40,672 nt of DNA, taken from IMG/VR virus record IMGVR_UViG_3300045988_145984, positions 1-40,672 of that record; one strand, given 5' to 3'. Within the stretch, counting starts at the first letter, position 1, and each line of letters starts with the position of its first letter. The stretch comes from a virus. The position numbers were made by a program, and so were the translations under genes. The notes under the pieces are model-generated. The model made no database searches, was not told the origin of the DNA, and was given only the letters and a program-made list of their open reading frames with translations. This document shows, in pieces, positions 1-31,226 of the stretch.

Positions 1-55
1 TGTGCGAATTGTAACATAGAGTGCAAATAAGATAAATGCTTATTTACACTCTATT
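1..55. repeat. Terminal direct repeat, copy 1 (identical to 40618..40672)
   Basis: Bases 1-55 (tgtgcgaattgtaacatagagtgcaaataagataaatgcttatttacactctatt) recur exactly as the last 55 bases. This is typical of a circular contig written with an assembly overlap. Unit length is about 40617 bp. Confidence 0.9.
16..54. promoter_or_regulatory. Imperfect palindrome with 16-bp arms (atagagtgcaaataag / cttatttacactctat) and a 7-bp spacer; candidate operator, terminator stem or abutted transposon-end junction
   Basis: Read directly. 15 of 16 arm positions are complementary and TTTTT follows. It lies between the IS30-type transposase gene and its HTH paralog, and overlaps the predicted -10 element. Confidence 0.5.
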
Positions 56-3310: not shown

Positions 3311-4174
3311 ATGGCATGGATAGAACTGCACGACACGCTGCCCGACCACAAGAAGGTTTTGGCGGTTGCAACCGCCCTAAAAGCGGACAAAGACCTAATC
3401 GTCGGTAAATTGGTCAGGTTGTGGGTATGGGCGCTCAATAACCGCGAGGATGGGCGATTCAGCGAGCAGGATGTTGCGACCATAGCCGAGATTATGCGAT
3501 TCAAGGGCAAACCGCAGAAACTCATAACTGCGCTGCTCGACGCAAGGCTACTCGATTACGATGGTTGCAACTACATGATCCACGATTGGGACGAGCGCGT
3601 AGGGATGCTGCTCGCCAAGCGTGAGACGTCACGTTCACAGGCCCGTGACAGGCAGCGAAAACGCCGCGAACGGATGCGTGACGCAAGCGTTACTTGTAAC
3701 GCAACTGTCACGCGTGACGAAACCGATTGTCACGCGGCTACCGTACCTAAACCGTACCATACAGATGATGATGACGATGGTGAGGACGATACCGCGCGCG
3801 CGTATGCGGAGGCGGAGCGTGTTGTCGCGGCGTCGTACCGCGCAGCTTTCGGGCGGGACGCAACAGCCGCGGAGGTCGCGGCTATATCCCGCACAGCCGT
3901 CCTTAACAACAAAGTGGCCATCATCGGACACGCGATAGACCTCACCGCTGTTTTCGGCGTAAAGGCCGTTGTAAAGTACGTCAACAGGATAGTCCGGGAC
4001 TGGGTATATTATCACATCGACAGCCCGGACGAGCTGGGCGAATATGACTATCTTCAGGACTGTGCGGCGGGACGATTGGACATCGGGTACATCGACCCGC
4101 AGGAGGCGCTTGAGCGTCTGAAGGCGCACCGTGAGCGCAAGATACAGGAGGAGCATAATGCCCAACAATGCTAA
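3311..4174 (+). CDS. Replication initiator / replisome organizer (DnaD-like C-terminal domain)
   Basis: The N-terminus MAWIELHDTLPDHKKV...LVRLWVWAL resembles phage replisome-organizer N-domains. A basic/acidic linker follows. The C-terminus ...AAEVAAISRTAV...VKYVNRIVRDWVYY is DnaD-like. The gene contains an internal heptamer cluster. Confidence 0.55.
   Translation: MAWIELHDTLPDHKKVLAVATALKADKDLIVGKLVRLWVWALNNREDGRFSEQDVATIAEIMRFKGKPQKLITALLDARLLDYDGCNYMIHDWDERVGMLLAKRETSRSQARDRQRKRRERMRDASVTCNATVTRDETDCHAATVPKPYHTDDDDDGEDDTARAYAEAERVVAASYRAAFGRDATAAEVAAISRTAVLNNKVAIIGHAIDLTAVFGVKAVVKYVNRIVRDWVYYHIDSPDELGEYDYLQDCAAGRLDIGYIDPQEALERLKAHRERKIQEEHNAQQC
3619..3735. repeat. Cluster of (G)CGTGAC / GTCACG(C) heptamers and nested palindromes; candidate replication origin inside the initiator gene
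   Basis: Copies at 3628, 3644, 3676, 3707, 3712 and 3729, plus GCGTTAC/GTAACGC at 3687/3696. These form GCGTGAC-gcaa-GCGTTAC-tt-GTAACGC-aact-GTCACGC and the 12-bp palindrome GTCACGCGTGAC. Confidence 0.45.
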
Positions 4175-4418
4175 CGCACCGCGGATTGTCTGCCCGTACT
4201 ACCAACGGGAGACGCCGACGTCGATAACATGCGAGGGGCTGTCTCCCGACACATCAAATGTCACCAGATTCGGGAGCAGAGGACAAAAACGGAGACACCA
4301 AATACAGTGTTGTGAACGATATTGCTATGCAAAAGTCTGCGCCTATGCTGCGCTGCTCGAAAAATCATACGCATGGGAGGATAGATCATGCAGCACTACG
4401 AAGAGAACGAGCAAATAG
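4158..4418 (+). CDS. Cys-rich hypothetical protein
   Basis: SD ggagg then ATG at 4158. MPNNANAPRIVCPYYQRETPTSITCEG...CCERYCYAKVC. I recognise no family. Confidence 0.5.
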   Translation: MPNNANAPRIVCPYYQRETPTSITCEGLSPDTSNVTRFGSRGQKRRHQIQCCERYCYAKVCAYAALLEKSYAWEDRSCSTTKRTSK

Positions 4419-4771
4419 CCCTGTTTCGGTGGGCCGCCTATGAGCAGGCCGTATATCCCGAGCTTGAGTATATGTTTCACATTCCCAACGGCGGCGTGAG
4501 GAACAAGGCCACGGGCGGGAAGCTCAAAGCGGCGGGAGTTAAGGCCGGTGTGCCGGATATATGCCTACCACTGCCATGCAAGCGATATGCCGGGCTCTAT
4601 ATCGAGCTCAAGGCCGGTAAAAATAAGCCTCAGCCCAACCAACTACGTTGGCTGGATGCACTCAACCGCAACGGCTACCTCGCCGTCGTGTGCTACGGCT
4701 GCGAAGAAGCGATAAAAACCATAGTTGATTACATCAAACTCACCAGGCAGAAAGGAGAACCCCATGAATAA
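4388..4771 (+). CDS. VRR-NUC domain nuclease
   Basis: The motif set IPNGG...GVKAGVPDICLP...LYIELKAGKNKPQPNQLRWLDALNRNGYLAVVCYGCEEA is typical of VRR-NUC. Confidence 0.85.
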   Translation: MQHYEENEQIALFRWAAYEQAVYPELEYMFHIPNGGVRNKATGGKLKAAGVKAGVPDICLPLPCKRYAGLYIELKAGKNKPQPNQLRWLDALNRNGYLAVVCYGCEEAIKTIVDYIKLTRQKGEPHE

Positions 4772-5468
4772 TTATCTATGCATCAACAGCAGAAAAACCG
4801 AACTGACCGAGCAGCAGCTCCGCGAGCTGGGCATAGCTCAGGCGGATGAATACATACCGGAAAATGAGATAGCGCAAATGTCCCGCATAGCCCTCTCGGG
4901 CAAGGCCGAGGAGTACTACAAGGTTCACGACACCATCACCGTGGGCGGAACTGTGTTTGAAATCATAGGCATAGGCCACGACACGGACACGATAACCAAT
5001 AAAAAAAATACCATCACACTCCGCAGCACTTTTACCGACATCCGAGCCGCAATGCATAAAGGCAGTTGTCCCGGCGGTTATAAGGACGCCTCGCTCAATG
5101 CCAGGCTGAACACACCCGAGGAATGGTTGCCTGCGGAAGTGCTCCCCTTTTTACGCACCGTCACAAAGAAATGCTCTAATTCCGACGGCGAGGATTACGA
5201 GCTGCCCTGCCGCCTGTTTTTATTCTCGGAAGCTGAGGTGTTTGGAAGCGCGATTTACTCTCCTATTGAGGAAGGTGAGCGATATAAGGGATTTGCCACA
5301 GCGAAAGACCGATATGTTTACGATGCGGACGGAAATAGAGCGGCCTGGTGGCTTCGCTCGCCTTATTCCAGCATCGGCGGCGACTTCTGTGCTGTGAACT
5401 CTTCAGGTGCAGCCTACTACTACTACGCCAGCTACTCCTGCGGCGTCGCCTTCGGATTCTGTTTTTAA
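4764..5468 (+). CDS. DGR variable protein 1 (remote target); C-terminal WWLRSP...FCAV...GVAFGFC variable domain
   Basis: SD aaaggaga then ATG at 4764. The C-terminal 41 codons match the TR at 34599..34720 except at TR adenines. It is homologous to the 33008..34111 protein beyond the VR (LFLFSEAEVFGS vs LFLFAEKEIFGS). Confidence 0.85.
   Translation: MNNYLCINSRKTELTEQQLRELGIAQADEYIPENEIAQMSRIALSGKAEEYYKVHDTITVGGTVFEIIGIGHDTDTITNKKNTITLRSTFTDIRAAMHKGSCPGGYKDASLNARLNTPEEWLPAEVLPFLRTVTKKCSNSDGEDYELPCRLFLFSEAEVFGSAIYSPIEEGERYKGFATAKDRYVYDADGNRAAWWLRSPYSSIGGDFCAVNSSGAAYYYYASYSCGVAFGFCF
5340..5461 (+). repeat. DGR variable repeat VR1
   Basis: Aligns to TR 34599..34720 with 16 substitutions, all at TR adenines. 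Most are in AAC/AAT codons. Confidence 0.9.
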
Positions 5469-5582
5469 CCCATACGCATGAATTGCAAAAATCTTCCTCC
5501 AAGGGGGAGACTTCAAGACTTCCCATGGTGTAACCTTACATTAAGCGCCTGCTCATGCGCTTCATGTGCCTCCTTTGTTATA

Positions 5583-5612
5583 GGAACAGCCCGGTATTTG
5601 CCGGGCTGTTCC
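5583..5612 (+). terminator. Hairpin GGAACAGCCCGG-tatttg-CCGGGCTGTTCC
   Basis: Perfect 12-bp stem followed by gctttatctt. It separates the early module from the packaging operon. Confidence 0.6.
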
Positions 5613-5620
5613 GCTTTATC

Positions 5621-5655
5621 TTGGTACAAAAACGGGGAGAAATCCAACCTGTTAC
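5621..5655 (+). promoter_or_regulatory. Conserved motif copy A: TTGGTACAAAAACGGGGAGAAAT ... CCTGTTAC upstream of terS
   Basis: Near-identical block at 31160..31201. Both copies lie just after a terminator and 25-31 nt upstream of a GTG-initiated first gene. Confidence 0.5.
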
Positions 5656-5686
5656 ACGAGTACAGTTGTTACACGGAGGATGTAAC

Positions 5687-6283
5687 GTGTCTAAACCGGA
5701 CTGGAATAGTATTAAGAGCGAGTACATCACCACGAACATATCGTACAGGTCACTGGCGGAAAAGCGTGGTGTTTCCTGGCGTACCCTGGCCGAGCGTGCA
5801 AGACGCGAGGGGTGGCCTGAAGAGCGCACAAGGTATTGTAACACTGTTGTTGTTAAGACCGTACAAAAGACCGCTACAAAGATGTCCACCGCGAACGCGC
5901 GTAAATTAGACCGGTTGCAACAAGCCGCCGACAGCATGAGCGAGGTAATTGCAGAGATATTCAGTGATACAGACCAGTTTCACAGGCATATCATACAGAC
6001 CCGCGACGGTGATACGTGGGACGCAGACTGCCGCACCATGGACAAAGTTGATACAAAGGCAATCAGAGACCTCACCGGCGCACTGAAGGATTTGTCGTTC
6101 GTCATGCGTAGCGTGTACGACCTGCCCACCGTGCAGGAGCGCAACGCTATGGATATAGCCGCCGAGCGATTGAAGCTCGACCAATCTAAGGCGGCGGCAG
6201 CAGCCGCAGAGGATGGCAGCGACAGCGATACCGGCGTTGTCGAGCTGGCCCCGGTATTGGAGGATGACGATGCACAAACGTAA
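5687..6283 (+). CDS. terS: Terminase small subunit
   Basis: GTG start with SD ggagga 6 nt upstream. HTH segment ISYRSLAEKRGVSWRTLAERARREGW, acidic C-terminus, overlaps terL. The longer ORF-track start at 5555 would span the terminator. Confidence 0.7.
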   Translation: MSKPDWNSIKSEYITTNISYRSLAEKRGVSWRTLAERARREGWPEERTRYCNTVVVKTVQKTATKMSTANARKLDRLQQAADSMSEVIAEIFSDTDQFHRHIIQTRDGDTWDADCRTMDKVDTKAIRDLTGALKDLSFVMRSVYDLPTVQERNAMDIAAERLKLDQSKAAAAAAEDGSDSDTGVVELAPVLEDDDAQT

Positions 6284-7721
6284 TGTAGTATGGACGCCAC
6301 AACCCAAGCAGCAGCTTTTCCAGCAGCGGCCTGAATATGAGGCGCTGTATGGTGGGGCTGCCGGGGGCGGTAAGTCCGATGCCCTGCTCGCGGAAGCGTT
6401 ACGGCAGGTCAATATTCCGCATTATCGCGCTATCATTTTTCGCAAAACCTACCCGCAGCTTTCAGAGCTCATAGACCGCAGCAAGGATATATATAAGCCT
6501 GCTTTCCCCAGGGCGCGATATAACCACACGGACCATTTCTGGCGGTTCCCCAGCGGCGCCAAGGTATATTTCGGCTCCATGCAGCGTGAGCAGGACCGCA
6601 CCAACTATCAAGGCAAGCGGTACGATTTTGTAGCATTCGATGAACTGACACATTTCACATGGCAGGAGTACAGCTACCTAATGAGTCGTAACAGGCCGGG
6701 CGGCCCCGGCACCAGAGTATATATCAGAGCAACCACCAACCCGGGCGGCATAGGCCATGGCTGGGTAAAGGATAGATTCATCACAGCAGCGCCGCCTCTC
6801 ACCCCAATAACAGGCGAGTATACCGTTGTAACCCCTGACGGTCCGCTCAAATTAAAGCGCAAACGGATATTTGTACCGGCTACCGTTTTTGACAACCAAA
6901 AACTGCTGGACAATGACCGGAATTACTTGGCAAACCTCGCCATGATGCCCACAGCAGAGCGCGACGCTTTGTTGTATGGAGACTGGAACAGCTTCAGCGG
7001 GCAGGTGTTTAGGGAATGGCGCGACGATCCCGCGCACTATGATGATCATCTTTGCACCCACGTTATCAAGCCATTCCGTATTCCGGGATTTTGGACGCGA
7101 TACCGTGGATTCGATTTCGGTTTCTCCCGCCCATTCAGCGTGGGCTGGTATGCAGTAGATCCTGACGGGAGGTTGTATCGGATAGCTGAGTATTACGGTA
7201 GCACTGGTGAGCCTAATGTCGGTGTGCAGATGCAGCCCGCCGAGATAGCAGCCAACATCAGGCGCATAGAGGCCGAAGAACCCAACCTCAAGGGTTGTCA
7301 GATCTACGGAGTAGCCGACCCGTCAATATTCGATGAGAGCCGAGGCATGAGCATAGCCGCCATGATGGAGACCTCCCCGAATTTTATCTCATGGGCACCG
7401 GGTGACAACACCCGCATAGCAGGAAAGATGCAGTATCATTTTCGGCTGGCATTCGGTAAGGACGGCAGACCGATGTTCTACTGCTTCAATACCTGCAAGC
7501 ATTTTATAAGGACTATCCCCGCTCTGGTTTACGATGCCAAGCACGTCGAGGACATCGACACATCTCAGGAAGACCACATATACGACGAGTGCCGTTATGT
7601 GATGATGAACAATCCTATTGCGGCGCGCAAGAACGAGTTGCAACCGCCCAAGGAGTTCGACCCGCTCGACCTGTGGACGGATACCACCATTAAAGACAAA
7701 TACGCCTTTTACAGGCAATAA
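6270..7721 (+). CDS. terL: Terminase large subunit
   Basis: Walker A LYGGAAGGGKSD, Walker B FVAFDELTHF, and a C-terminal RNaseH-like nuclease region. SD ggagg 6 nt before ATG 6270. Confidence 0.9.
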   Translation: MHKRNVVWTPQPKQQLFQQRPEYEALYGGAAGGGKSDALLAEALRQVNIPHYRAIIFRKTYPQLSELIDRSKDIYKPAFPRARYNHTDHFWRFPSGAKVYFGSMQREQDRTNYQGKRYDFVAFDELTHFTWQEYSYLMSRNRPGGPGTRVYIRATTNPGGIGHGWVKDRFITAAPPLTPITGEYTVVTPDGPLKLKRKRIFVPATVFDNQKLLDNDRNYLANLAMMPTAERDALLYGDWNSFSGQVFREWRDDPAHYDDHLCTHVIKPFRIPGFWTRYRGFDFGFSRPFSVGWYAVDPDGRLYRIAEYYGSTGEPNVGVQMQPAEIAANIRRIEAEEPNLKGCQIYGVADPSIFDESRGMSIAAMMETSPNFISWAPGDNTRIAGKMQYHFRLAFGKDGRPMFYCFNTCKHFIRTIPALVYDAKHVEDIDTSQEDHIYDECRYVMMNNPIAARKNELQPPKEFDPLDLWTDTTIKDKYAFYRQ

Positions 7722-7735
7722 GGAGGTTTTAAGCA

Positions 7736-9697
7736 ATGCCAAAATTCCCGCCCAGAACACAAGAGACGGAAGGAGCACAACTCCCGTTACCACAGCAGGG
7801 CACACCCGCGGCTGATACCGCACAAGCTGCTCCGGGACGCATAGGGCCTGTCGGCAAGGAAGAGGTCGCCAAGGCCGAGGCCATACTCCAGAAGTATAAA
7901 TCCGGCAAGGATAGCCTCAACAACCGCATTGTGGAGAATGAAAAGTGGTTTACCCTGCGCCAATGGGAAGTTATACGCGGAGTGAAAAGCAACCCCGATG
8001 ACCCAGAACCGGCCTCGGCATGGCTGTTCAACTGCATCGCCAACAAACACGCCGATGCCATGGACAATCTTCCCGAACCGTGTGTGCTGCCACGCGAAAA
8101 GGGCGATGTAAATGACGCAGATGTATTATCGGATGTGCTCCCCGTCATTCTCGAGCAGAACAGGTTTGAGGATGCGTATTCTACCGTTTGGTGGCGCAAG
8201 CTCAAGAGCGGCAGCGGCGTATATGGCGTTTTCTGGGACGCCATGAAGAACAATGGGCTGGGAGAGATAGATATCCGCGCCTGTGACGTGCTAAACCTAT
8301 ACTGGGAATCCGGCATAAGCGATATCCAGCACTCTCCTCACCTGTTCCATGTCGGAATCGAAAACCGGGAAATGCTCATCGGCCAGTATCCCTTTATGGC
8401 CGATAAGGTTGGTCAGTATCCCACGCTGGAGACACCTAAGTATGTTTACGAGGACAACGCCGACACCTCCGACAAGGTTGTCGTTGTTGATTGGTATTAC
8501 AAAGTACGCAACGAGGCGGGTAAAACAATACTGCACTACTGCAAATTCTGCTGCGGCGAGGTACTGTATGCGTCCGAGAATGATCCGGCATACGCACAGC
8601 GCGGATACTACGACCACGGCAAATATCCGTTCGTCATGGATATCCTGTTTCCGCTTGAGAATACTCCGGCCGGATTCGGCTATATCGACGTCGGTAAAAG
8701 CCCGCAGATCTACATAGACAAACTCGACCAGGCCATTTTACGGCACTCCGTCATAGGTTCGCGGCAACGGTATTGGATTCGTGGCGACGGCAATATCAAC
8801 ATCGAAGAGTTCCGCGATTCCACCTGCGATTTCGTTCATTTCTACGGTTCGGGAGATCCACGCGATTGTGTGATATCCATGGATTGCCCTCCCCTCAGTG
8901 ATATCTACGTTGGAGTTCGCGAAAACAAAATCGACGAACTGAAGGAGACCTCCGGCAACAGAGATTTTTCACAGGGCGGTACAAGCTCCGGCGTTACGGC
9001 AGCGTCTGCAATAGCAGCATTGCAGGAGGCAGGCTCTAAACTCTCCCGCGACATGATTAAGAGTGCGTACCGGGCCTGCGTGGAGGTGGACTACCTCGTG
9101 CTGGAGCTTACGCGGCAGTTCTATAAATATCCCCGGTTCTTCCGCATAATCGGAAATGAAGGCGCTATGCGGTTCGTGGAGTTCTCCGGCGATCAAATAG
9201 CAGGTAAGCCGCAAGGTAACGACTTCGGCATTGATTTAGGATACCGTGTACCAATATTCGACATCAAGGTGTCCGCGCAAAAAGCATCGCCGTTTGCTAC
9301 GGCGGCGCAAAATGAACGCGCCAAGGAATTTTACGGCATGGGCTTTTTCAGGCCAGACCTTGCAGACCAGGCACTCGCCGCCCTCGACATGATGCAGTTT
9401 GAGGGAATTGAAGAAGTACGTGAGAGGATAGCGCAAAACCAGACGCTATATCAGCAGGTGCAGCAGCTATCACAACTCGCGCTTGCCATGGCGCAGGAGC
9501 TCGATGCGATAAAAGGCAGCGCTTACTCCCAGCAGATAATGCAGCTTGTCGGCATGAATGCTCAGCAGACCCCACAGGGCAATGCAGCCAGGCCAGAGAT
9601 GCAGCCTAATATACTCGGCTCTATAAACGCCGGTATGAGCAGCACGGCAGGCGCGGCCAGAACAAGGGCGGCAGAAAACGCCACACCGAAAGCGTAG
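7736..9697 (+). CDS. Portal protein
   Basis: 653 aa directly downstream of terL, SD aaggagg. Size, position and the acidic/helical C-terminus fit a portal. Confidence 0.75.
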   Translation: MPKFPPRTQETEGAQLPLPQQGTPAADTAQAAPGRIGPVGKEEVAKAEAILQKYKSGKDSLNNRIVENEKWFTLRQWEVIRGVKSNPDDPEPASAWLFNCIANKHADAMDNLPEPCVLPREKGDVNDADVLSDVLPVILEQNRFEDAYSTVWWRKLKSGSGVYGVFWDAMKNNGLGEIDIRACDVLNLYWESGISDIQHSPHLFHVGIENREMLIGQYPFMADKVGQYPTLETPKYVYEDNADTSDKVVVVDWYYKVRNEAGKTILHYCKFCCGEVLYASENDPAYAQRGYYDHGKYPFVMDILFPLENTPAGFGYIDVGKSPQIYIDKLDQAILRHSVIGSRQRYWIRGDGNINIEEFRDSTCDFVHFYGSGDPRDCVISMDCPPLSDIYVGVRENKIDELKETSGNRDFSQGGTSSGVTAASAIAALQEAGSKLSRDMIKSAYRACVEVDYLVLELTRQFYKYPRFFRIIGNEGAMRFVEFSGDQIAGKPQGNDFGIDLGYRVPIFDIKVSAQKASPFATAAQNERAKEFYGMGFFRPDLADQALAALDMMQFEGIEEVRERIAQNQTLYQQVQQLSQLALAMAQELDAIKGSAYSQQIMQLVGMNAQQTPQGNAARPEMQPNILGSINAGMSSTAGAARTRAAENATPKA

Positions 9698-9704
9698 GCG
9701 GTAT

Positions 9705-10115
9705 ATGACCACTGTTGACTATGAACATAACAAAAACACCTTTGAGCTAAAGGTGATGGGCCACGCCGGGTATAATCCCGGCGGTCCTGACATCGTGTGC
9801 GCTGCTTGCTCAACACTCGTATATGCCTTGTGGGATTCCATGCTGGAGCAGCAGGATACGGGAATGCTGGAGGAGCTGGATGTAATGCAGAACGATGGCA
9901 TGTTTGCTCTAAAAGCCGTATGCAGTGCCGAGAGCAATGCGCAGATAATCGTGATTTTTAACGTAATCATGCGTGGCTTTGCTATGATAGCGCAAAAATA
10001 TCCGGAATTTTGTAACATATCAGGCCAAAAACAGGGAGAAAAGAGATCGCAGTCTCGTATATCATACCTCCAGACGCGAGGGAAAGACCTCAGAGACGGC
10101 GGGAAAGACCGCTGA
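9705..10115 (+). CDS. prp: Prp-family cysteine protease (ribosomal-processing protease homolog), likely head maturation protease
   Basis: GHAGYNPGGPDIVCAACS carries the His/Cys dyad signature of Prp/YsxB. Confidence 0.8.
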   Translation: MTTVDYEHNKNTFELKVMGHAGYNPGGPDIVCAACSTLVYALWDSMLEQQDTGMLEELDVMQNDGMFALKAVCSAESNAQIIVIFNVIMRGFAMIAQKYPEFCNISGQKQGEKRSQSRISYLQTRGKDLRDGGKDR

Positions 10116-10171
10116 CGCTGGGTAAATAGCCAAGTATGACGCCGGGGAAAGACCCGAGGAAAGGATTACGC

Positions 10172-11122
10172 ATGAAAAACTATCTGCTCATGAATCTGCA
10201 CTTGTTTGACGGAGAAGGCGGTGGAAACGCTGGCGGCGCAGAAGGCGCAGCATTACCCGCAGCCGGCAGCAAGGCAGGCAAAAGCAACCCCCTTGCCAAC
10301 GTTCAATACGGAACCACCCCCAACGGTTCCCAAAATGGAACAGCACAGTCCGGCGCGGCTGTCACCTCAAATGTGGAAGAGGCCCGAAAAGCCGAGTTCG
10401 ACAAGCTCATTAAGGGCGAATACAAAGATTTGTACGACGCCAATGTGCAGAAAAACATCAACGCTCGGTTTAAGGAGCTCGACGGTCTCAGGGCAAAATC
10501 TGAGCAGTTCGACGCATTGAATCCAGTACTCAATATACTTGCTCAGAAATACGGCGTTGACGGCACGGACGCTGATGCCCTCGTTAAGGCAATCGAAGAT
10601 GATGATAGCTACTACGAGGAAGAGGCCATCTCGAAGGGACTGACCGTGGAGCAGCTAAAAAACATCAAGAAGCTGGAGCGCGAAAATGAGAGCTTTCGCC
10701 GCGCAGCCCAGGAGCAGCAGCGACAGCAAAACGCAGACCGCATATACGCTATGTGGCAAGATCAGGGTGAGGACTGCAAAAAGACATACCCCAATTTTGA
10801 CTTCCAGCGCGAAGTTGACCCTAAGCAATCTCCTACAGCAGAAAGGTTTTTGTCGTTGCTGAAATCCGGTGTGGATGTAAAGAACGCTTATATGGTCGTA
10901 CATATGGACGATATCATGTCCGGCGCTATGCAGTACACCGCCCAACAGATATCTCAAAAGACTGTGAACGACATCATGGCGAGGGGCATGAGACCCGCCG
11001 AGAACGGAGCAAACAGCACCGGTGCGGCTACCATCACAAAAACAGACCCAACCAAGTTTACGAAAAAAGACCGCGAGGAAATCTCGCGGCGCGTCGCAAG
11101 AGGAGAAATCATAACCCTTTAA
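10172..11122 (+). CDS. Scaffolding protein
   Basis: Lies between the protease and the capsid gene. It is rich in charged, coiled-coil-like sequence, and its N-terminal MKNYLLMNLHLF/DGE matches the Prp cleavage motif. Confidence 0.6.
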   Translation: MKNYLLMNLHLFDGEGGGNAGGAEGAALPAAGSKAGKSNPLANVQYGTTPNGSQNGTAQSGAAVTSNVEEARKAEFDKLIKGEYKDLYDANVQKNINARFKELDGLRAKSEQFDALNPVLNILAQKYGVDGTDADALVKAIEDDDSYYEEEAISKGLTVEQLKNIKKLERENESFRRAAQEQQRQQNADRIYAMWQDQGEDCKKTYPNFDFQREVDPKQSPTAERFLSLLKSGVDVKNAYMVVHMDDIMSGAMQYTAQQISQKTVNDIMARGMRPAENGANSTGAATITKTDPTKFTKKDREEISRRVARGEIITL

Positions 11123-11155
11123 GATGGTTCTCCTCAAATCAGAAAGGAGAATTAA

Positions 11156-12424
11156 ATGTTTAACATCAGACCCTATCTAAGGCTCAATCTGCGCCTGTTC
11201 GACGTTGACCTTAACGTGCAGACCACCAAATCCCCCGGTCTGACCGACGGTATGAAAACCTACTATGAGGACAGGCTGATAGATTACGCAGAGCCCCAGC
11301 TCGTGCATGATCAGTTTGGCGACGAGTACAACATACCGAAGCACGGCGGTAAGATTATCGAATTCCGCAAGTATCTGCCCCTACCCAAGGCGCTTAATCA
11401 GCTTATTGAAGGCGTTACCCCCAAGGGCGGCAAACTGGAAATGAGCACCCTGACCGCCGAGGTTGGCCAGTACGGTTACTACATCACCATCTCCGATATA
11501 CTGGAGCTCGCCCATGTTGACCCTCAGATCGAACAGGCTACCAAGCTGCTCGGCTCACAGGCAGGCCGCACTTTGGACACCATTACTCGCGACGTCATCA
11601 CCGCCGGCACAAACGTATCCTATGCGCCCAAGGTTTCTGCCGCAGGCGCCGAAACCGAGGTACTGTCCCGCGCCGACCTTGATGATACCGCGCTGCTTAC
11701 CACTCGCGTCATCTTCAAAGCGGCAGCCAAGCTCCGGCGCATGAATGCTGTACCCATCGATGACTGCTACGTCGCCATAGTCCATCCCAACGTGTCGTGT
11801 GACCTTATGTTATCCGACGGCTGGATCGATGTGCATAAGTACGCACAGCCCGATAACATCTACAATGGCGAAATCGGCAAGCTCGGCGGTGTTCGCTTCG
11901 TCGAATCCACCGAGGCGCGTATTATCGGTCCCGCAGCCATAAGCGACGGTCTGGGAGTGCTTAGCGTAAAGACCGCTATAAACTCCAGCTCCAGCAGTAT
12001 TGTCATCAACGAGGAGCTGACCTCCGCTACTCCCGCAGAGCCCATACCCGTATATATCAACGGTTCGCCTAACACCATCACCGCAATAGCTACTACCGGC
12101 GGCAACACTACCCTGACTATAGGCACCGCCGTCACCAGTCTCGCGGCAGGCGCGAAGATAACAGGCAAGGGCGCGACCAAGAGCGGCAAGGCCGTATATT
12201 GCACTTTGTTCGTAGCGCAGAACGCATACGGCAGGACTGCTCTCAAAAACGGCGGATTGCAGCACATTATAAAGCAGCTCGGCTCCGGCGGTACTGCTGA
12301 CCCTCTGAACCAGAGAGCTACCACCGGCTGGAAAGCAACCAAGGTTGCAGAACGTCTTGTTGAGGAGTACATGGTGCGCGTTGAGCACTGCTCCGAGACA
12401 GAGCCTTACGCTGCTGCCAACTAA
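11156..12424 (+). CDS. Major capsid protein (resembles the N4-gp56 family, HK97 fold)
   Basis: MKTYYEDRLIDYAEPQLVHDQFG...GGKIIEFRKYLPLP...EGVTPKG...QYGYYITISD is typical of that family. The N-terminal LRLNLRLF/DVD is a Prp-type cleavage motif. Confidence 0.85.
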   Translation: MFNIRPYLRLNLRLFDVDLNVQTTKSPGLTDGMKTYYEDRLIDYAEPQLVHDQFGDEYNIPKHGGKIIEFRKYLPLPKALNQLIEGVTPKGGKLEMSTLTAEVGQYGYYITISDILELAHVDPQIEQATKLLGSQAGRTLDTITRDVITAGTNVSYAPKVSAAGAETEVLSRADLDDTALLTTRVIFKAAAKLRRMNAVPIDDCYVAIVHPNVSCDLMLSDGWIDVHKYAQPDNIYNGEIGKLGGVRFVESTEARIIGPAAISDGLGVLSVKTAINSSSSSIVINEELTSATPAEPIPVYINGSPNTITAIATTGGNTTLTIGTAVTSLAAGAKITGKGATKSGKAVYCTLFVAQNAYGRTALKNGGLQHIIKQLGSGGTADPLNQRATTGWKATKVAERLVEEYMVRVEHCSETEPYAAAN

Positions 12425-16021: not shown

Positions 16022-16206
16022 CTAAACATATCCAAAAGCTAATGGATGCCCTGGCCTGCCTGGACGCTGTTTCCGTGACCGGCAGGAATAACAGAATGAA
16101 TATGCTGCTCGCGGAGCAGCACATAGCCGACGTCGCACAAGAGCTCACTGCGGCAGAGACAGCAAAGAAAAAAGATAAGGAGGCGGCTGACAATGGCAAC
16201 GTATAA
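16018..16206 (+). CDS. Hypothetical protein
   Basis: ATGA coupling to the previous CDS; 62 aa. Confidence 0.45.
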   Translation: MTKHIQKLMDALACLDAVSVTGRNNRMNMLLAEQHIADVAQELTAAETAKKKDKEAADNGNV

Positions 16207-17626
16207 GAAAGGCTCCCGCAGCGATGAGGTAAAAAGGATACAGGAAGCCCTCGGGATAAAAGCAGACGGTATATACGGCTCGCAGACAGAACGGGCGGTT
16301 CGCAGTTATCAGCAGCAGAACGGCCTTAAGGTTGATGGTATCGTCGGGAATAACACATGGGGCAGCCTCTTCAGGGGCGGCTCCGGCGGCTTTGATTGGA
16401 GCGGCGGCGTCAACACCGGCTCTGCATCCGGCAGTTATAGCAGCCAACGCAAGACCGCCGACTGGCTTTCTCAATATGAGACCGGGCGGCCTACATACTC
16501 GCCCTCCCAGGCGGTTAACGATGCGGCGAATATGCTTGCAGACTATGAGCGCAACCGCCCCGCCGCCTTCAAGAGCCGCTATGATGACAGGATACAAAGC
16601 CTGTTAGACCAGATTCTCAATCGCGGCCCATTTGAATATGATTTCAATGCCGACCCACTATATCAGCAGTATAAAGACCAATATACCCAGCAAGGCAAAA
16701 TTGCAATGATGGACACCATGGGACAGGCAGCGGCGTTGACCGGTGGATATGGCAGCTCCTACGGCTCCGTGGCGGGGCAGCAGGCGTATCAGGGTTATTT
16801 GCAGCAGCTCAATAACGTAATACCCGAGCTTAGGGATGCTGCATTCTCAATGTACCAAGCAGAGGGCGATAACATGCGTTCCAAGCTCGGCGTACTTAGC
16901 GGCCTTGATGATACCGATTACGGCAGATACCGCGACACCGTAAGCGACTATTACAACGACCTCAACTACTACTACAACAAGTATAACGATATGTCCGAAG
17001 CGGATTATAATCGCTATCTTAATGATGCTGCCGCCTGGGAGAACGACAGGGCATATTGGTACAACAAAGCGCAGGACGAGCAGACGCAAGCCAACTGGCA
17101 AGCCGAGTATGACATGGCCGCGGCAAAGGCCGGATACGGCGGTTCCGGCTCAGGTAGATCCAGCGGCAGAGGATACAATAACGGCTCTCTCACATCTGCA
17201 CAGATCAGGCAGTTGCAAGCCCTGTTGGGCGTCGCCGCCGATGGCAAATACGGTTCTAAATCCATGGCCGCTGCCGGTGGGTTAGATGCCGACGCAGCAT
17301 GGGCAAAGTATTTCGGCGGGCGTGGCGGCTCCGGCAGCGACAAACTGTCCGAAAGCGATTTCAATCGCAGCTCTGCTATGCGGTCAAAGTACGGCACATA
17401 TTCCAATTACCTGAATGGTGGAACCGGCAGAACCGGCAGCGGCGAGCCCAGCGTATATAACAACGTCAGGCATGACGCTAAGGGCAACATCAAGAGCATA
17501 CACATGGGCAATGGCTATATAAGCCTGGATGAATTCGACAGGTATCTTGCCCAGGGAAAAATCAAAGAAGTTCACATGCCCAACGGCAAGGTCAGATATG
17601 AATGGGCACGGCAAGGTCAGATATGA
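16193..17626 (+). CDS. Virion-associated protein with peptidoglycan-binding (PG_binding_1) repeats
   Basis: N-terminal GSRSDEVKRIQEALGIKADGIYGSQTERAVRSYQQQNGLKVDGIVGNNTW and a second degenerate copy LTSAQIRQLQALLGVAADGKYGSKS. The centre is Y/N/D-rich. Confidence 0.7.
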   Translation: MATYKKGSRSDEVKRIQEALGIKADGIYGSQTERAVRSYQQQNGLKVDGIVGNNTWGSLFRGGSGGFDWSGGVNTGSASGSYSSQRKTADWLSQYETGRPTYSPSQAVNDAANMLADYERNRPAAFKSRYDDRIQSLLDQILNRGPFEYDFNADPLYQQYKDQYTQQGKIAMMDTMGQAAALTGGYGSSYGSVAGQQAYQGYLQQLNNVIPELRDAAFSMYQAEGDNMRSKLGVLSGLDDTDYGRYRDTVSDYYNDLNYYYNKYNDMSEADYNRYLNDAAAWENDRAYWYNKAQDEQTQANWQAEYDMAAAKAGYGGSGSGRSSGRGYNNGSLTSAQIRQLQALLGVAADGKYGSKSMAAAGGLDADAAWAKYFGGRGGSGSDKLSESDFNRSSAMRSKYGTYSNYLNGGTGRTGSGEPSVYNNVRHDAKGNIKSIHMGNGYISLDEFDRYLAQGKIKEVHMPNGKVRYEWARQGQI

Positions 17627-17652: not shown

Positions 17653-20600
17653 ATGGCGAAAGAATCTCTATACGCTCACGCTCAAAAGGTCATGAAAAAG
17701 AAGGAGATGGACGATGCCGGCAATGCACCCCGCCCTTCTGATTCTTCACAGAGCCGCGATAGCTCCGAAGCATCTAAGGGAAGGCAATCCCTCTATTCCC
17801 ATGCACAGAAGTTCGTAACTAAGCGCGAAGAGTATAAGCCGTCGGCGGAATATCAGCGGTTGCAGCAGCGCCCCACACCGAAGCGCAGCGTCACGACATC
17901 GACGTATGAAGACGCAGCCGCACGGCTCCTTTCCGGTAATAATACTGGCAAGGCCAAGTTTGGTAATTCATGGGACAGGTACTTGGAGCTTTCCCACAAG
18001 GACACCCTTACCGCCGAAGAAAGGGCAGAGGCCAAAGCAGCGCGAAAGAATATTGAATCGGCCTATGGTGCCGCCGGCAAATATCAGCAGGATCTTCTCC
18101 TTGCTGATATCCCGCAGGAGGTCATGGACGTATACCGCGACCTGGGCCTTAAGGCTGACGCTGCAACCGGCGTTGCAATGGGCTTCTTGGATGCCCTCGG
18201 CGTGGACTGGCTATCCGATAAGGTCGCAGACGCCATGCACAGCGATTCCCCGCGTATGCAGTCCCAGCTTGCACGGGCTAAGGCCGCCCAAGGCACGGCG
18301 TTTGGCGTTGGCAATGTTGCAGGAAATTTGTATTCCATGCTCGGCATCAATCAGCTTGTCGGCGCTGGAGCAAAAGCCGTCCCCGCTCTTTCCAAGCTCC
18401 CAAAATATGCCCAGACTGCCATAAAGGGCGCGGCTACCTACGGAATAAAGGGGGCTTATTCCGGCCTCACCAATACGCAGACCAAGGAGGAATGGGACAG
18501 GCGCCAACAGCTTGCAGCAGAGTATTACGCTGAGCAGGGTATTGACTACCAGCCTATTGAGTATAGCACCTGGCAACAGGTCGGTAATATCGCCCAGTCC
18601 TTCGGCCTCGGCGCTCTTAGCGGTGCGGCTGGCAGCGTTGCAGGCGATTTTGTGGGCGACCTCGGTAAAGCTGTTCTTGTTAAACTCGGTTGGCAAAAAC
18701 CGCTTGCCGAAGTTATCCGTCAGGCTCTTGCCAGCACCGCTCACGCAGGCGCGAGCACAGCCTCCACATATTGGCTCTACCCAGAGGATATTAGGCCAAA
18801 CAAGGAAAAAATAGTTCAAGACCTTGCGCTATCCTTCCTTTTCTCTGCTGCTACGACCACTATAAGCACCATACAGGTATCGAAGCAGAACAAGGAATTC
18901 CTTAACGGCGCAATAAATAAAATGCGGAACGACTACCAGACTATTCTTAACTCAGACATGAGTAAGGAAGCACAGTTGGCAGGCATGGACGAGATTATTA
19001 AATATAACCAGACCATCCGCTCCGCACTGTCTCAAAACTACTATGCCGGGCAGCAGTCCACCATCAACGAACTTATTCGTTCCATGGATGCTATCGACGA
19101 GCAGATAAATATAATAAAAAACGGCGTTGCAGAAGGCACGGCAACGTCATCCCCTGCCTCGTCCCCGAATGGTATAAACGTTCCCAGCGGATACCTGCCC
19201 GGAGATAGTTTGCGTAAGGCAGCGGAAGAAGCCGCAGGACTGTCCCCTACCCCTCCCTCGCCCTCGGCTCCTATCGCGCCCGTAGAACCTCCTAAGGTAA
19301 GCGCGTCCGATATTATTCCTCCTGTTGTCACAGCGGAAACAAAGCCGGTTGCAACCGTCTTAAACGATGTCAACGAGCCGCCCGTTGATAATACCGAGGC
19401 TCACGACAATATCCTCGCCATCGTGGAGGATGCAGGAAAGAATAATACTCCCTATGATGTGGTGCTCAATACTGCCAACAGCAGCATAGACAACAACATT
19501 GTTACCGCCGACGAAGTACGGAGTAGATATGAGCAGGGATTGGCTGCCTATAACAAAACCACGCCTCCCGCCAAAGCTGATACCGGCGACAATAACGCCG
19601 TCACCGATATATCCGCCTTTGAAGAGGCTGGCTTTAAGCACTGGCAGAAGGACGACAAGGACAGGCTTTATATCAGCATGTCTAAGCTCGGCCTGTCCAA
19701 CGAGGTCAAAGACATCAAGGGGCGCGTGAAAGTGTGGCTGGATGTGCCCACAGGCGAGGTGCAGGCGACAAAGGACACTCCGAACTCGGTTATTGAAGCT
19801 GCTCAAAAGCTGGTTGACAGCGTACAGGGGAAGGCTGACGTTGCGGAAAATATAAGCACCGCGGAAAAACCGCCTGTTTACGGCAGCGACATTGCCCAGG
19901 CTCTTGAGCATATAAGCAGGATTAAGTACGACGGGCTGATATATTCGGTATCCGGTCAGGTCAATGGGTACTATACCAGCATTACCCGCGACGATTCCCG
20001 GGCGGATGGAATGATATCCAATGACCGTTCCACTATCTACCGCGGCGGTCCGTTTGCCACCCGCAAGGAGGCTGCTGCGGATATCGCAGGTGTTTATGAT
20101 AACAATTTTGCAAATAATACAGGCAGTTCGCCTACTCCGGCATTGCAGGCCGAAGCTGCTCTTGCTACAATGACCTTAGAGGAGCAGGGCGCAATCAGGC
20201 AGTATAAGAGCGGCAGCGATTCATACATGCTCAACGAAAAGCTGTATTCCGGCGCGGCATTGTCCGAAAACGAAAAAAAACTTGCCGACAATCTGGACAA
20301 GGCCCTCGATAAGCTGCCCAACTACAAGGGCACCACTTATAGGGTTCTGAGCTTTGACCGGCAGGGCAAAGAGGCTTACGACGCCTTTATCGCGCGGCAT
20401 GTGCCAGATATGCCTGTGAACTATGGCGCATATACCTCGTCCTCCAAAACGCTGGATGGCTATGATATCGACTGTGCCTTAAAGGTTAAGGTTGAAATTG
20501 ATGGTTTTTCCGGCAAAGATGTTTCGCAGGGCTTCGGGCTCGAAACGGAAAATGAGGTTTTATACGGAAGAACGGTTGACTACATTACCAAATCTGTAGA

Positions 20601-23600
20601 AACCACACAAGACGGCGTAACAGTTATCAGGATAAAGGAGGCCAATCTCAATGACGAAGGTATTCTCGCCGGACGAGAAAAATCAGTGGACGGCTCCGCT
20701 CAGGGCCAGAACACCCAAGTGCGGGCTGTGCAAGAGGTGGAGGGGAGCAAACGAGCAGAACAGGCCGGTGTGCGAGGCGTTCCCGAACGGGATACCCAGA
20801 GCGGTATTCAAGGAGGAAGTGGATCACTTCAAGGAGAACTATCCGGGGGACAACGGAATGCTCGGAATACCGAAGGAGAGTTAGGAGGACAAACACATGG
20901 CAGCACTCAGAAGCGTTCTGACGAAGGAGTTTATGAAGGACAAAATGCCCTTGCCCCACTACGGGGAGATGGCAGAGAGGTACTACCGGGAGTTCTGCAA
21001 ACCGAGCTACCGGTCTCTGGCAGCGAAGGGGCCGGAGCACGTTTATCAGTACTTCGAGAAGCTGGGAATGAAGGCACTCGACGAGCAGACCGAAATGATG
21101 CAGCAGGGAGTAGCCGAGGACGGAGCCTGGGAAATCGTCAAGGAGTGGCTGTTCCCGAGGGGCGAGGAGAACATGAAGTAGGGCTTGAGCAGGAAGCAAA
21201 GGCTGAAATAGAACGCACCGTGACAGAGAAGCCCAAGGGGGCCAACTTTGTCATAGGTGAAAAGCTCAACCTTCCCGCGGGTGAAAAAGCCCGTTATAAG
21301 GCTAATGTAGCCGCTATCAAAATCGTTAAAAACCTGATAGCTGAAAATCGGTATGCAACCGCAGAGGAACAGGAAGCCCTCTCCAAGTACGTTGGGTGGG
21401 GCGGCCTCTCCTCTGCGTTTGATGCAAAAAAAGAGGGCTGGTCAAAAGAGTATGGCGAGCTGCAAGCACTGCTTTCGCCAGATGAATACAAGTCCGCCCG
21501 GGCAAGCACACTCAATGCCCATTATACGAGCATAGACGTTATCCGCGCCATGTACGAGGGACTTAGACACCTGGGCTTCCAAGGCGGCAGAATGCTCGAA
21601 CCCTCCGGCGGTATCGGTCACTTCATGGGCGCTATGCCTGCCGATATGCAAGGCACGGTCAAGTCCTGGACGATGGTTGAGCTGGATGACATCACCGGTC
21701 ACATTGCAAAATACCTCTATCCTAACAACGATGTGCGTATAGAGGGCTTTGAAAAGGCAAAGATACCCAACAATTACATGGACGTCGCCATAGGCAACGT
21801 GCCTTTTGGCAACTATGCTATCACAGACAAAACCTACCCCGGCACTGTTACTTCGGCAATCCACAACTACTTCTTTGCGAAGTCGCTTGACAAGGTGCGC
21901 CCGGGCGGTCTTGTGACGTTCATAACCTCGCGGTATACGATGGACGCATACGACGACAGGGTACGTAAATACCTGATGGACAACGCCGACCTTTTGGGGG
22001 CTATCCGCCTGCCGGACACCGCTTTCAAGAGCAACGCCGGAACAGAAGTAGTCACTGACATAATAGTGCTGCGCAAAAGGGCTGCCTTCACTCCCTATAA
22101 GGGTGAAGCGTTCAGCGAAGCGAGATATACGCTTATGGGGCGCGGCGGCACCTATGTCAACGAGTACTTTGCCAATCATCCCGAAATGGTTCTTGGAACC
22201 CCGGAAATGAGCGGTTCTATGTACGGCAAGGACGGACTGACCTACAAGGCCCTCAAAGGCGACTTGAACAAGCAGATAATAAGCGCATTCAAGAATATTA
22301 CCGGTAAGATGGAGTATCCAAAGCGCCCCACCGTGGAGAAGGTCAACCGGGACGCTGCCATAGCGGAAGCGAAAGGCAAGGAAGGCTCCCTCGTCGCAAA
22401 GGGCAACAAGATATACAAAATAAACGATGGTCAGCTTGTAGAGCACAAGACTACCGAAAAGCAGGCGGCCACAACCGCGAAGATCCTCTCCATCCGCGAC
22501 ACTGCCCGCGGGCTGCTGAATATGCAGCTTCAGAGTGCGAGTGAGATGGATATAAAAGCAGCTCGCTCTAAGCTGAATAAGGCATACGACGCATTTGTCA
22601 AGCAGCATGGATTTATCAATGCGCCCGGGAACAAGCGGTTATACTCAGATGATGTTGATGCTCCTTTCATCACTTCGCTCGAAAATTACGATGCAAAGGC
22701 GAAAATCGGCCGCAAGGCTGATATCTTCTCCAAGAACACCGTCTCCCCCCGCAGGACCATTACCCACGCCGACAGCGCGATAGATGCGCTCATAGTGTCC
22801 GTCAACGAAACGGGCGGCGTGGATATTCAGCGAATTGCGGAATTGACCGGAAATAGTGTCGATGCCGTTTCTCGTGAACTGCTGGATGCGGAGCTCGTGT
22901 ATAAGAACCGTGACGGCGGTTATGAAACCGCCGAGCAGTATTTGTCCGGCAACGTAAAGGCAAAGCTGCGTGATGCAGAAGATCTTCTCCCCGCCGATAA
23001 GGATTACCAGCGCAATATTGACGCACTGAAGAAAATCATCCCGGCGGATATTCCGTATCACGATATATTCGTACAGCCCGGTTCTACTTGGATACCCCTA
23101 AGCGTGTACTCGGATTTTGTTTCTCACATGCTCAATGTGTACAACGGCGGATATAGGCCGAAATTCAAGGTTTCCTATTCCGCCTTGACGGGCGACTATA
23201 TAGTGCAGATAATCGATAGCTATGTAAAACGCTCCGTAGAAAACACAGCCACATGGGGAACCTACGACAAGTCGTTTGCAGAACTTTTCAGCGCATTGCT
23301 GAACAATCGGCGCATTGTCGTATCCCATAAGGACGCAGAAGGGCGCTCCTATGTAGACAAGGCAGCCACCATTGCCGCTCAGGAAAAGGCCGAGGCCATA
23401 AAAGCCGAGTTTCAAAACTGGATATGGCAGGATGAAGCGCGACGCGATACCCTCGCCCACCTGTACAATGAAACCTTCAACAACACCGTTACCCCTAAAT
23501 ATAACGGCGCAAACCTCACCGTAGACGGTATAAGTGCGGCCAAGCCGCTCCGAGCCCATCAAAAGGACGTGGTTCAGCGTATAATTGCCTCCGGCGGTAA

Positions 23601-29931: not shown

Positions 29932-29943
29932 AGGAGCAATATT

Positions 29944-29970
29944 AAAAAGCGGGGAGCATTTCCCCGCTTT
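29944..29970. terminator. Bidirectional rho-independent terminator AAAAA-GCGGGGA-gcatt-TCCCCGC-TTT
   Basis: 7-bp GC stem flanked by an A-run and a T-run, between the convergent giant ORF and the minus-strand membrane protein gene. Confidence 0.8.
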
Positions 29971-30337
29971 ACTTCTTTGCTATTATCCTGATGTTCTCCA
30001 CTCCTGTTTTTATTATATGCCATAGATATGGGATTATAGATACTTTTAATGCTATTAGTAGTAAAGGCCAAAATATCAGGCCCAAAACATCTATATCCCT
30101 TTGCACAACGATCGTAGACGCCATCACCCATGCGGCGGTTTCTACCAGAAACGCCAATATTGAAGCTCGTAAAATAATAATTGCGGCTATCAACTTTACC
30201 CACCACGGATAATGCAAAAAGATTAAAGGATAAAGCGCAATCGCTATGCTTGCGATTACAGTAATCGCTTTCCTTGTTCGTTCAGATTTTTCCTGTGCCT
30301 TTTCTATGCTGCATTTCGGTTTGTAGAATTCGCCCAT
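29969..30337 (-). CDS. Multi-pass membrane protein (accessory/moron)
   Basis: 122 aa with 3-4 hydrophobic segments (ITVIASIAIALYPLIFL, LIAAIIILRASILAFLV, LGLIFWPLLLIAL). Strikingly AT-rich DNA, about 27% GC in 30001..30060 by my count. Confidence 0.65.
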   Translation of the reverse strand: MGEFYKPKCSIEKAQEKSERTRKAITVIASIAIALYPLIFLHYPWWVKLIAAIIILRASILAFLVETAAWVMASTIVVQRDIDVLGLIFWPLLLIALKVSIIPYLWHIIKTGVENIRIIAKK

Positions 30338-30338
30338 G

Positions 30339-30761
30339 TCATAAACTCCCCCCTTTTCTTCTCCTTTCCCTCCATCGCGTCACAATCACCTCGACACAAC
30401 AACCAATCATAAGAACCAACAGCAGTATCCCAAGACATTTCAGCATAACGTCCAGCACATCCGTCTCAGGCTCCGGCTCCGGCGTAGGAGCTGGCGTAGG
30501 CGTTGGCGTCGGTAAACTCCTCGACGGCGCTCCGGCGCTGCCTGTCCCCCGGCTCCCCGTAGCATCATCAAAGTCAAACGGGCATTCGCCGTCTATATGC
30601 TGATGTGCCTCGTGACCGTGGTGGTAATGGTATTCTCCTGTTGAGCGGTCATAATGTCCACCCTCACTATCCGTACCGCCCGAATGGGCGGTTGCAACCG
30701 CCTTAAACAGTATGAGCGCAGCCATGCATGAGACTGCGGCAACGAGCAATAACCTTCTCAA
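30339..30761 (-). CDS. YHYH-domain protein with a signal peptide, Pro/Thr/Glu linker and C-terminal TM anchor
   Basis: GGTDSEGGHYDRSTGEYHYHHG is the YHYH motif. N-terminal hydrophobic leader. TTG start with SD gaggt. PTPTPTPAPTPEPEPE linker, then LGILLLVLMIGCCVEVIV. Confidence 0.7.
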   Translation of the reverse strand: MRRLLLVAAVSCMAALILFKAVATAHSGGTDSEGGHYDRSTGEYHYHHGHEAHQHIDGECPFDFDDATGSRGTGSAGAPSRSLPTPTPTPAPTPEPEPETDVLDVMLKCLGILLLVLMIGCCVEVIVTRWRERRRKGGSL

Positions 30762-30874
30762 TTAAGAAACCTCGCGCTATTTCTCTTAATTCTCATCTTT
30801 AACATAATTCTCTTTTGTTTTCATGCTACTGTCAAGCGGTAAATATCATCTTTAGCAAAAAAGAGACGAGGCGC

Positions 30875-31117: not shown

Positions 31118-31132
31118 TCGCCAGCATATTAG

Positions 31133-31155: not shown

Positions 31156-31159
31156 ATTT

Positions 31160-31201: not shown

Positions 31202-31226
31202 CATCGTGGAAAAAGGAGGCGATGGT

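Follow-up and report, generated by a model that had tools for sequence, protein, structure and literature searches.

Non-adjacent targets were reported for 45 of 372 diversity-generating retroelements (DGRs) by Wu et al. (2018, PMC5758913), the phage-associated ones lying nearly always within 50 kb and being read there as one adjacent plus one distant target in the same prophage. Among described gut phages, a Toutatisvirus DGR has, as its second target, a DUF6273 protein of unknown function that is encoded in the core genome, 17,480 nt from the template repeat (TR) (bioRxiv 10.1101/2024.10.15.618418), and the Faecalibacterium prophages Lelie and CP11 carry large-plus-small pairs of DUF6273 targets (PMC11792537). 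Phages nd4 and nd12 encode a tentaclin together with a second C-lec target, the function of the latter being left as an open question (Baykov et al. [quoted passage not shown] Here we analyse a DGR with two targets in IMG/VR virus record IMGVR_UViG_3300045988_145984 (positions 1 to 40,672; the whole 40,672-nt stretch is called the window), which is the 40.6-kb circular form of a phage with a 55-bp terminal overlap. One target gene adjoins the TR and encodes a large protein with its variable repeat (VR), VRb, at the 3' end. The other encodes a small, 234-aa protein whose 3' end, 5340..5461 (VRa), is very probably the VR of a second target that the phage's single DGR serves at a distance and that is currently in use. 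VRa lies ~29 kb from the TR on the linear prophage map and ~11 kb from it around the circle.

The remote repeat and its template

The ungapped alignment of VRa with TR 34599..34720, anchored on TGGTGGCTTCGCTCGCCT, holds 16 mismatches, all of which (16/16) fall on TR adenines; with 31 adenines in the 122-nt TR stretch, the chance that 16 random mismatches would all do so is P ~7e-12. All 16 occupy codon position 1 or 2 of open reading frame (ORF) 4764..5468, and the substitutions include AAC>GCC, AAC>GGC, AAT>TCT, four cases of AAC>TAC, and TAC>TGC. Read in the VR frame, the TR gives TNWWLRSPNSSNGNNFCAVNNSGAANNNNASNSYGVAFGF, in which 28 of 31 adenines occupy the first or second position of a codon. 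The adjacent repeat (33983..34104, 3' end of ORF 33008..34111) differs from the TR at 13 positions, again exclusively at adenines (13/13). Eight mutated positions are common to both repeats, eight are found only in the remote and five only in the adjacent one, and TAC stands at three of the same AAC codons in VRa and VRb. A blastn search of the TR against the whole window returned three copies in total and no fourth. An original prediction, drawn up from the letters of the window before this analysis, had proposed a second DGR target served by the same TR on the basis of this alignment; its 16 adenine substitutions and every codon example that it gave are confirmed here, the positions private to each repeat bear out its view that VRa and VRb carry different substitutions and were diversified independently, and the shared template is supported by the A-only mismatches together with the entropy and TR tracking set out below.

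The 5' edge of VRa is soft, with the first three mismatches within 6 nt and no similarity upstream, so the solid core of the repeat is 5345..5461; the homology of the adjacent copy to the TR extends ~8 nt further upstream. VRa ends 7 nt before the stop codon and thus forms the 3' end of its ORF. The last 20 bases, GGCGTCGCCTTCGGATTCTG, are identical in VRa, VRb and the TR. Immediately 3' of them, both VRs read (T/C)(T/G)TTTAA and the TR reads CCATAGCC, the VRs agreeing with one another and differing from the TR. By analogy with BPP-1 (PMC3240598, PMC5758913), we infer that GGCGTCGCCTTCGGATTCTG may act like an initiation of mutagenic homing (IMH) element.

Variability is as high at the remote as at the adjacent site. 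Many full-length homologs of the small target, 88-100% identical to it, are present in the protein database. When 35 homologs are aligned, the 16 codons that have a TR adenine in their first or second position average 2.09 bits of column entropy, the remaining VR codons 0.26 bits and the 192 scaffold residues 0.11 bits; the corresponding values from 27 homologs of the adjacent target are 2.17, 0.29 and 0.10 bits, and we therefore consider the two sites equally variable. The original prediction had named an invariant remote repeat beside a varying adjacent one, combined with loss of the 3' homing region, as the pattern that would speak against it; in public metagenomes the remote repeat varies as much as the adjacent one. 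Furthermore, the remote repeat follows its cognate template. The TR of IMG/VR contig 3300045988_142731 differs from the window's TR at 20 positions, and the remote repeat of that contig has 21 mismatches to its own TR, all at A (21/21), as against 15 non-A mismatches to the window's TR; both of its repeats independently show A-only mismatch patterns.

Within the window's lineage, otherwise near-identical genomes carry five distinct VRa alleles with 5 to 19 differences from the TR, one of which (in L001) is almost an unmutated TR copy, and the alleles differ from each other almost only at TR adenines. The 150 nt downstream of VRa are identical to the window in four of the five allele groups and differ by one base in the fifth, and the 576 nt of the gene upstream of VRa have 0-15 differences from the window across the lineage. 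Identical small-target alleles were also found in 15 contigs (L126-L129) and in 23 contigs (L130-L133) from different samples and host insertion sites; individual alleles of the repeat thus outlast both spread and transposition. Between diverged lineages, the scaffold has a ratio of non-synonymous to synonymous change (dN/dS) of 0.11-0.13, which is indicative of purifying selection, and changes in the repeat are almost all non-synonymous. Four independent lines of evidence, namely variability, concerted evolution with the template, recent alleles and selection, thus argue that the small target is no pseudogene and no fossil; being intact and under selection, the gene is not the decaying copy that the original prediction had held up as the contrary case.

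The predicted DGR core, made up of a reverse transcriptase (RT), a candidate Avd homolog, an intergenic TR and an RT-2 RNA, is complete (Table 1). Among the RT motifs is one of the form [ILV]GxxxSQ, which is typical of DGR RTs. The Avd-like ORF agrees in position and size with an accessory gene of this kind and has no direct Pfam or NCBIfam match, and a PDB sequence search with it gave nothing meaningful; it is 38% identical (E 3e-31) to L121:7401-7823, itself a match to PHROG 3206 'Avd protein of DGR'. The structured RNA begins directly behind the TR, extends into the 5' end of the RT gene and is also present in L016 and L121. The large target gene lies directly 3' of a BppU_N and collagen tail-fibre gene (31104..32999).

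Table 1. Features of the two-target DGR and its gene neighbourhood, in window coordinates.
Feature	Position	Strand	Evidence or remark
VRR-NUC nuclease gene	4388..4771	+	Pfam PF08774 E 2e-10; PHROG 824 and 5702 (Holliday junction resolvase)
Small remote DGR target, 234 aa, free-standing DUF6273 (lectin-like)	4764..5468	+	Pfam PF19789, fold, dN/dS
Remote variable repeat VRa (very probable)	5340..5461	+	A-only mismatches, population entropy, five alleles in near-identical genomes
IMH-like G+C-rich 3' end of repeat (GGCGTCGCCTTCGGATTCTG)	5442..5461	+	exact copies at 5442, 34085 and 34701
Predicted intrinsic terminator	5583..5612	+	13-bp stem and T-rich tail, between small target gene and terS
terS	5687..6283	+	PHROG 1206 E 6e-13; GTG start, GGAGG ribosome-binding site; 198-aa gene in relatives
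Large adjacent DGR target, 367 aa, DUF6273	33008..34111	+	PF19789 64.6 bits; VRb ~33975..34105
G+C-rich hairpin (CCCGCCCC TTGT GGGCGGG)	34129..34147	+	~20 nt 3' of large target stop, downstream of VRb
Avd-like accessory protein gene, 136 aa	34163..34573	+	between adjacent target and TR
Template repeat (TR)	34591..34720	+	intergenic; 13 AAY codons in VR frame
Structured RNA, Rfam RT-2	34722..34941	+	RF03077, full-length, 133.3 bits against gathering score 40, E 4e-31
DGR reverse transcriptase	34926..36053	+	RVT_1 E 2e-17; PHROG 1423 E 7e-77; motifs LGSQVSQ, YMDD

Hairpin loss and the second backbone

Efficient homing in BPP-1 depends on a hairpin downstream of the target (PMC3240598), an element that has been described as non-essential (PMC5758913). 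The G+C-rich hairpin that follows the large target in the window corresponds to this BPP-1 element and also follows the small target in L002, L092, L088 and L090, including the second backbone discussed below; after the small target it is absent in the window, L001, L005, L011 and L130. A short replacement removed it in the window's lineage (5469..5560 against L002:8139-8250 and L092:7241-7350), and the 106 nt at 5455..5560, which comprise the stop codon and ~90 nt beyond it, fold no better than shuffled sequences (z = -1.2). A weak hairpin at 5496..5510 was considered as a substitute for the lost element and rejected, having 4-5 pairs in a region that folds like its shuffles. The original prediction overlooked that the hairpin is missing behind the remote copy. 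Because all five VRa alleles carry the deletion, diversification must have continued in the absence of the hairpin, which is consistent with the 'not essential' of the literature (PMC5758913). The locus offers a natural experiment on target recognition, in which the same target gene occurs with and without the hairpin and the hairpin-less lineage still diversifies. The sizes of the sequence clusters, 268 for the large target and 41 for the small, were rejected as a measure of relative homing rate, as the 90% clustering threshold splits the variants of the shorter protein.

Homologs of the small protein with ~50% identity, in which the N-terminal motif NYLCINxKKTELT is kept, occur on a different backbone, that of IMG/VR 3300045988_108204 and others, in contigs of 55-186 kb and are hypervariable at the same C-terminal positions. 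These lie among small accessory genes (AcrIC5, SSB, HicB, Fic, ParB and an integrase), and within 10 kb of the small target no RT or template was found at any of 26 loci. A search pattern that combined the invariant repeat positions with A at the variable positions recovered templates on five of the contigs (locus pairs L119/L121, L102/L122, L093/L123, L095/L124 and L097/L125), 11-13 kb downstream of the small target and with nearly all mismatches at A. The cassette found there comprises a 345-aa large target (36-40% identical), Avd, TR, RT-2 RNA and an RT that is 61% identical. Since a homologous cassette accompanies the same pair on another backbone, the combination of a large adjacent and a small remote target is evidently old and maintained rather than an accident of one genome. 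On its larger element the cassette adjoins a ParB-like gene and two tRNA genes. Ten second-backbone contigs (L100, L101, L103, L104, L107-L112) share one identical, apparently frozen VR together with a truncated or absent hairpin, which hints at an outcome opposite to that of the window's lineage.

The diversification mechanism itself is well supported by these sequence signatures, and we hold it with high confidence. Several observations nevertheless count against a remote repeat in current use: all of the variability evidence comes from comparison of assemblies, the hairpin needed for efficient BPP-1 homing (PMC3240598) is deleted after VRa in the window's lineage, and one VRa allele is present in up to 23 contigs at several insertion sites, from which it follows that turnover is not fast relative to spread. 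The deletion, the persistence of identical alleles across many contigs and insertion sites, and the frozen second-backbone class, with its single repeat in 10 contigs and truncated hairpin, would all fit a relic paralog, that is, a duplicate of the adjacent target that was formerly diversified and is a DGR substrate no longer. We judge this highly improbable, as the five alleles all occur in genomes that bear the deletion, so that the changes in VRa post-date it; the repeat moreover tracks its own TR in the diverged genome 3300045988_142731, and it varies as much as the adjacent target does. VRa might also owe its variability to recombination or gene conversion, involving either the two repeats or co-infecting phages, in place of direct retrohoming; such exchange could draw on the 20 identical 3' bases and long identical internal blocks of the repeats, as well as account for TAC at three of the same AAC codons in both. 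We give this explanation very little credence: differences between alleles are almost confined to TR adenines, VRb retains the TR base at 8 adenine positions that are mutated in VRa, conversion from VRb cannot supply the near-unmutated TR allele of L001, and both repeats of the second genome, 3300045988_142731, show their A-only patterns independently.

The small target protein, its gene context and its possible roles

The 234-aa protein scores 41.1 bits against Pfam PF19789 (cut-off 23.5) and is 37% identical to the large target over 225 residues by BLASTP (E 4e-35; residues 21-233 against 144-366), in agreement with the earlier proposal that the two proteins are paralogs beyond the VR. It amounts to the lectin-like domain of its paralog preceded by 20 unique N-terminal residues, the first 143 residues of the paralog being absent. 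The AlphaFold model, computed from 49 sequences, is confident, with a mean pLDDT of 91.9 and a pTM of 0.83. Among solved structures, Foldseek ranks the N-terminal DUF6273 domain of the IgA peptidase 9qa6 from Thomasclavelia ramosa (E 7e-6) first and Legionella Lcl next, and classical C-type lectins appear weakly among the structural matches; a PDB sequence search with the family profile returned 9qa6 as its sole match (E 0.05). Foldseek matches among predicted viral structures comprise DUF6273 proteins as well as annotated tail-collar fibre and receptor-binding proteins (E 1e-14 to 1e-6). The N-terminus, MNNYLCINSRKTELTEQQL, has no hydrophobic signal-like stretch, as the original prediction had noted in finding no obvious signal peptide. 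Pfam detects no Ig-like domain in the protein; lacking Ig domains and having its repeat at the C-terminus, it is not a tentaclin.

Megablast of window 4000..12000 against GenBank phages gave no match, and tblastn of the small protein against them gave two unannotated fecal contigs at 35-42% identity, leaving no annotated close relative. A genome-collection scan made with an alignment of closer homologs yielded one Acutalibacteraceae metagenome-assembled genome (MAG) and one contig of a Prevotellaceae MAG that is probably mis-binned.

The small target gene is predicted to be the last gene of a replication and recombination operon. Upstream of it are genes for a Cas4-like exonuclease, a replication initiator and the VRR-NUC nuclease, and the stop codon of the last of these overlaps the ATG of the small target, to which it appears to be translationally coupled. 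The 218-nt spacer between the small target and terS holds the terminator, for which the DNA fold z-score is -4.6 and none of 200 shuffles folds as well, and which is kept in the diverged lineages L002 and L092. terS is the first gene of the packaging and structural operon, followed by terL, a P22-type portal and capsid genes. The placement given in the original prediction, between the VRR-NUC gene and terS and not among tail genes, therefore stands, and can be extended to a replication and recombination module; its 'early region' gains support from the last-gene position in that unit, with the timing itself inferred. Just upstream of the terS start codon (GTG at 5687), repeated TGTTACAC / TGTAAC motifs occupy 5640..5686 and are kept in L002 and L092; TGTAAC is also found at the left end of the phage (window 9..14). 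These motifs could be a regulatory site of the late operon or a packaging site.

If the BPP-1 paradigm applies, the TR would be transcribed together with the RT-2 RNA, the RT and the Avd-like protein would copy the TR and misread its adenines, and the resulting cDNA would replace the 3' ends of the two paralogous target genes. As the DGR would act in trans, the 29-kb distance would be irrelevant. Some 16 codons on the binding face of a 234-aa DUF6273 (C-type-lectin-like) protein would thereby be continually rewritten while the scaffold is conserved, and the small protein may be a soluble module that binds ligands and explores a sequence space shared with its tail-fibre-associated paralog.

What such a module would bind, and where, is a matter on which we are tentative. 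Our leading guess, which we hold at a little less than even confidence, is that the protein works extracellularly as an accessory adhesin or receptor binder, either carried by the virion or set free at lysis; paralogy and the structural neighbours are what favour this extracellular role. The place of the gene in its operon, the missing anchor and the accessory genes around its homologs favour a non-structural one, in which the small protein would be an early-expressed intracellular binder of variable host or rival-phage proteins, serving counter-defence or exclusion. The gene is the last of the replication and recombination operon, overlapping VRR-NUC and with a conserved terminator behind it, no signal peptide or anchor domain was found in the protein, and the second-backbone homologs sit among accessory genes that include AcrIC5, HicB, Fic and SSB. 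Timing of expression is, however, not fixed by gene position alone, the paralog adjoins a tail-fibre gene, and the structural neighbours are annotated as tail-collar and receptor-binding proteins. Mtd of BPP-1, the characterised phage DGR target, is a receptor-binding protein. Phage DUF6273 targets, furthermore, are predicted to be receptor-binding or structural (PMC10743442, PMC11792537). We consider the non-structural intracellular binder rather unlikely and lean towards the extracellular accessory binder.

Searches for an attachment module weigh against the virion form of this extracellular role. BLASTP of the N-terminal 60 residues against all window proteins gave nothing below E 0.2, and neither word-indexed nor HMMER searches placed the N-terminus on any other protein architecture. 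The word-indexed search, made with the first 73 residues, had a fragment of the same protein as its sole match; the exhaustive HMMER search returned family members and two giant repeat proteins of 4889 and 2999 aa. A shared anchor with these two, a Big_13/RTX adhesin and a CWB2 cell-wall-binding protein, respectively, was rejected because the weak matches over multiple stretches look compositional. A broader variant, in which the small protein is a non-virion diversified binder made from the early operon and active inside the cell or freely released, for instance against host-defence or rival-phage proteins, seems to us improbable. If true, it would be the first phage DGR target with a non-structural role, and the pairing of a fibre-associated with a free target on two unrelated backbones would represent two jobs drawing on one template.

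Other genome features and comparison with described systems

Beyond the DGR, several features of the phage are worth recording. Integration is by an IS30-family transposase (NF033563, 243 bits) and not by a tyrosine or serine integrase (regions 39430..40572, 1..55 and 40606..40672). Homology to integrated copies begins at window position 3 (loci L005, L006, L011, L092, L126-L133), and the copies occupy at least nine distinct sites in their hosts, frequently next to ribosomal-protein operons (IF3-L35-L20, S9-L13, S15, L32). The minus-strand host flank reads like the sigma-70 promoter (TTGACA, ~17 nt, TATAAT) of a divergent host operon. In the circular form, TTGACA of the right end (40606..40611), a 17-nt spacer and TAACAT of the left end (12..17) come together, and this junction resembles the junction promoters of insertion sequence circles; an exact look-up of the IS30 transposase for right-end junctions found nothing on record.

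A 4092-aa ORF (17653..29931) takes up 30% of the genome and contains Eco57I-like methylase, ResIII/SNF2 helicase and LPD38 'large polyvalent protein' domains, for which reason it is probably an injected anti-restriction polyvalent protein. The ~0.9 kb at 29931..30815, between this giant ORF and an XRE-type helix-turn-helix gene (30815..31117), holds no convincing plus-strand gene, and the minus-strand ORFs 29969..30337 and 30339..30761 have no Pfam match. Three PG_binding_1 proteins, a 477-aa protein at the end of the structural block (16193..17626), a papain-like one (Peptidase_C1; 37182..38153) and an NlpC/P60 one (38137..38877), give the phage more enzymes directed at the cell wall than is usual for a genome of 40 kb.

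The small target family provides a well-documented case for the question, shared by three recent papers, of what the second targets of gut-phage DGRs do. It is tractable, being minimal (a lectin-like domain plus ~20 residues) and the remote target on two backbones, and public gut metagenomes, in which it is abundant, contain hundreds of its alleles. Roux et al. (2021, PMC8144416) acknowledge that their DGR survey was limited to the RT neighbourhood, and surveys limited in this way will systematically miss remote targets such as this one.

When set beside the BPP-1 DGR (Guo et al. 2011, PMC3240598), the window shares the TR/VR pair, adenine-specific mutagenesis, a VR at the 3' end of the target, an RT, a candidate Avd-type gene, the G+C-rich end of the repeat and the G+C-rich hairpin, which here follows VRb. 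It differs in that one TR serves two targets, one of them 29 kb away, in that the targets belong to DUF6273 and do not match Mtd in sequence, and in that the remote copy in the window's lineage still varies without a hairpin. Adjacent and distant targets within one prophage were already part of the survey of Wu et al. (2018, PMC5758913), where proteins and gene context were not characterised; here the distant target belongs to a defined, conserved family of small proteins in a predicted early operon. Given that non-adjacent DUF6273 targets in gut prophages are published, the present case extends a known arrangement, and the sense of an unusual one in the original prediction was overstated (PMC5758913, bioRxiv 10.1101/2024.10.15.618418, PMC11792537).

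Toutatisvirus, Lelie and CP11 are similar in having one TR, two DUF6273 proteins and a repeat at the C-terminus, but their targets have no close sequence relationship to those of the window, their backbone differs from the IS30-transposase prophage with a P22-type portal found here in MAGs of uncultured Clostridia, and the partner target is fibre-associated here rather than a Hoc-like or Ig-domain protein. The tentaclin phages nd4 and nd12 (PMC10743442) likewise have gut-phage DGRs with two DUF6273/C-lec targets. In Treponema denticola (PMC4891356), as here, one TR and one RT diversify several dispersed paralogous targets in trans; that system, however, is cellular, with targets spread across the chromosome, whereas both targets of the present DGR travel in a 40-kb mobile prophage. 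Relative to all of these, what is new here is a family of minimal, free-standing proteins that consistently serves as the remote target, the location of that target in early or accessory gene arrays on two backbones, and a natural case of hairpin loss with continued diversification.

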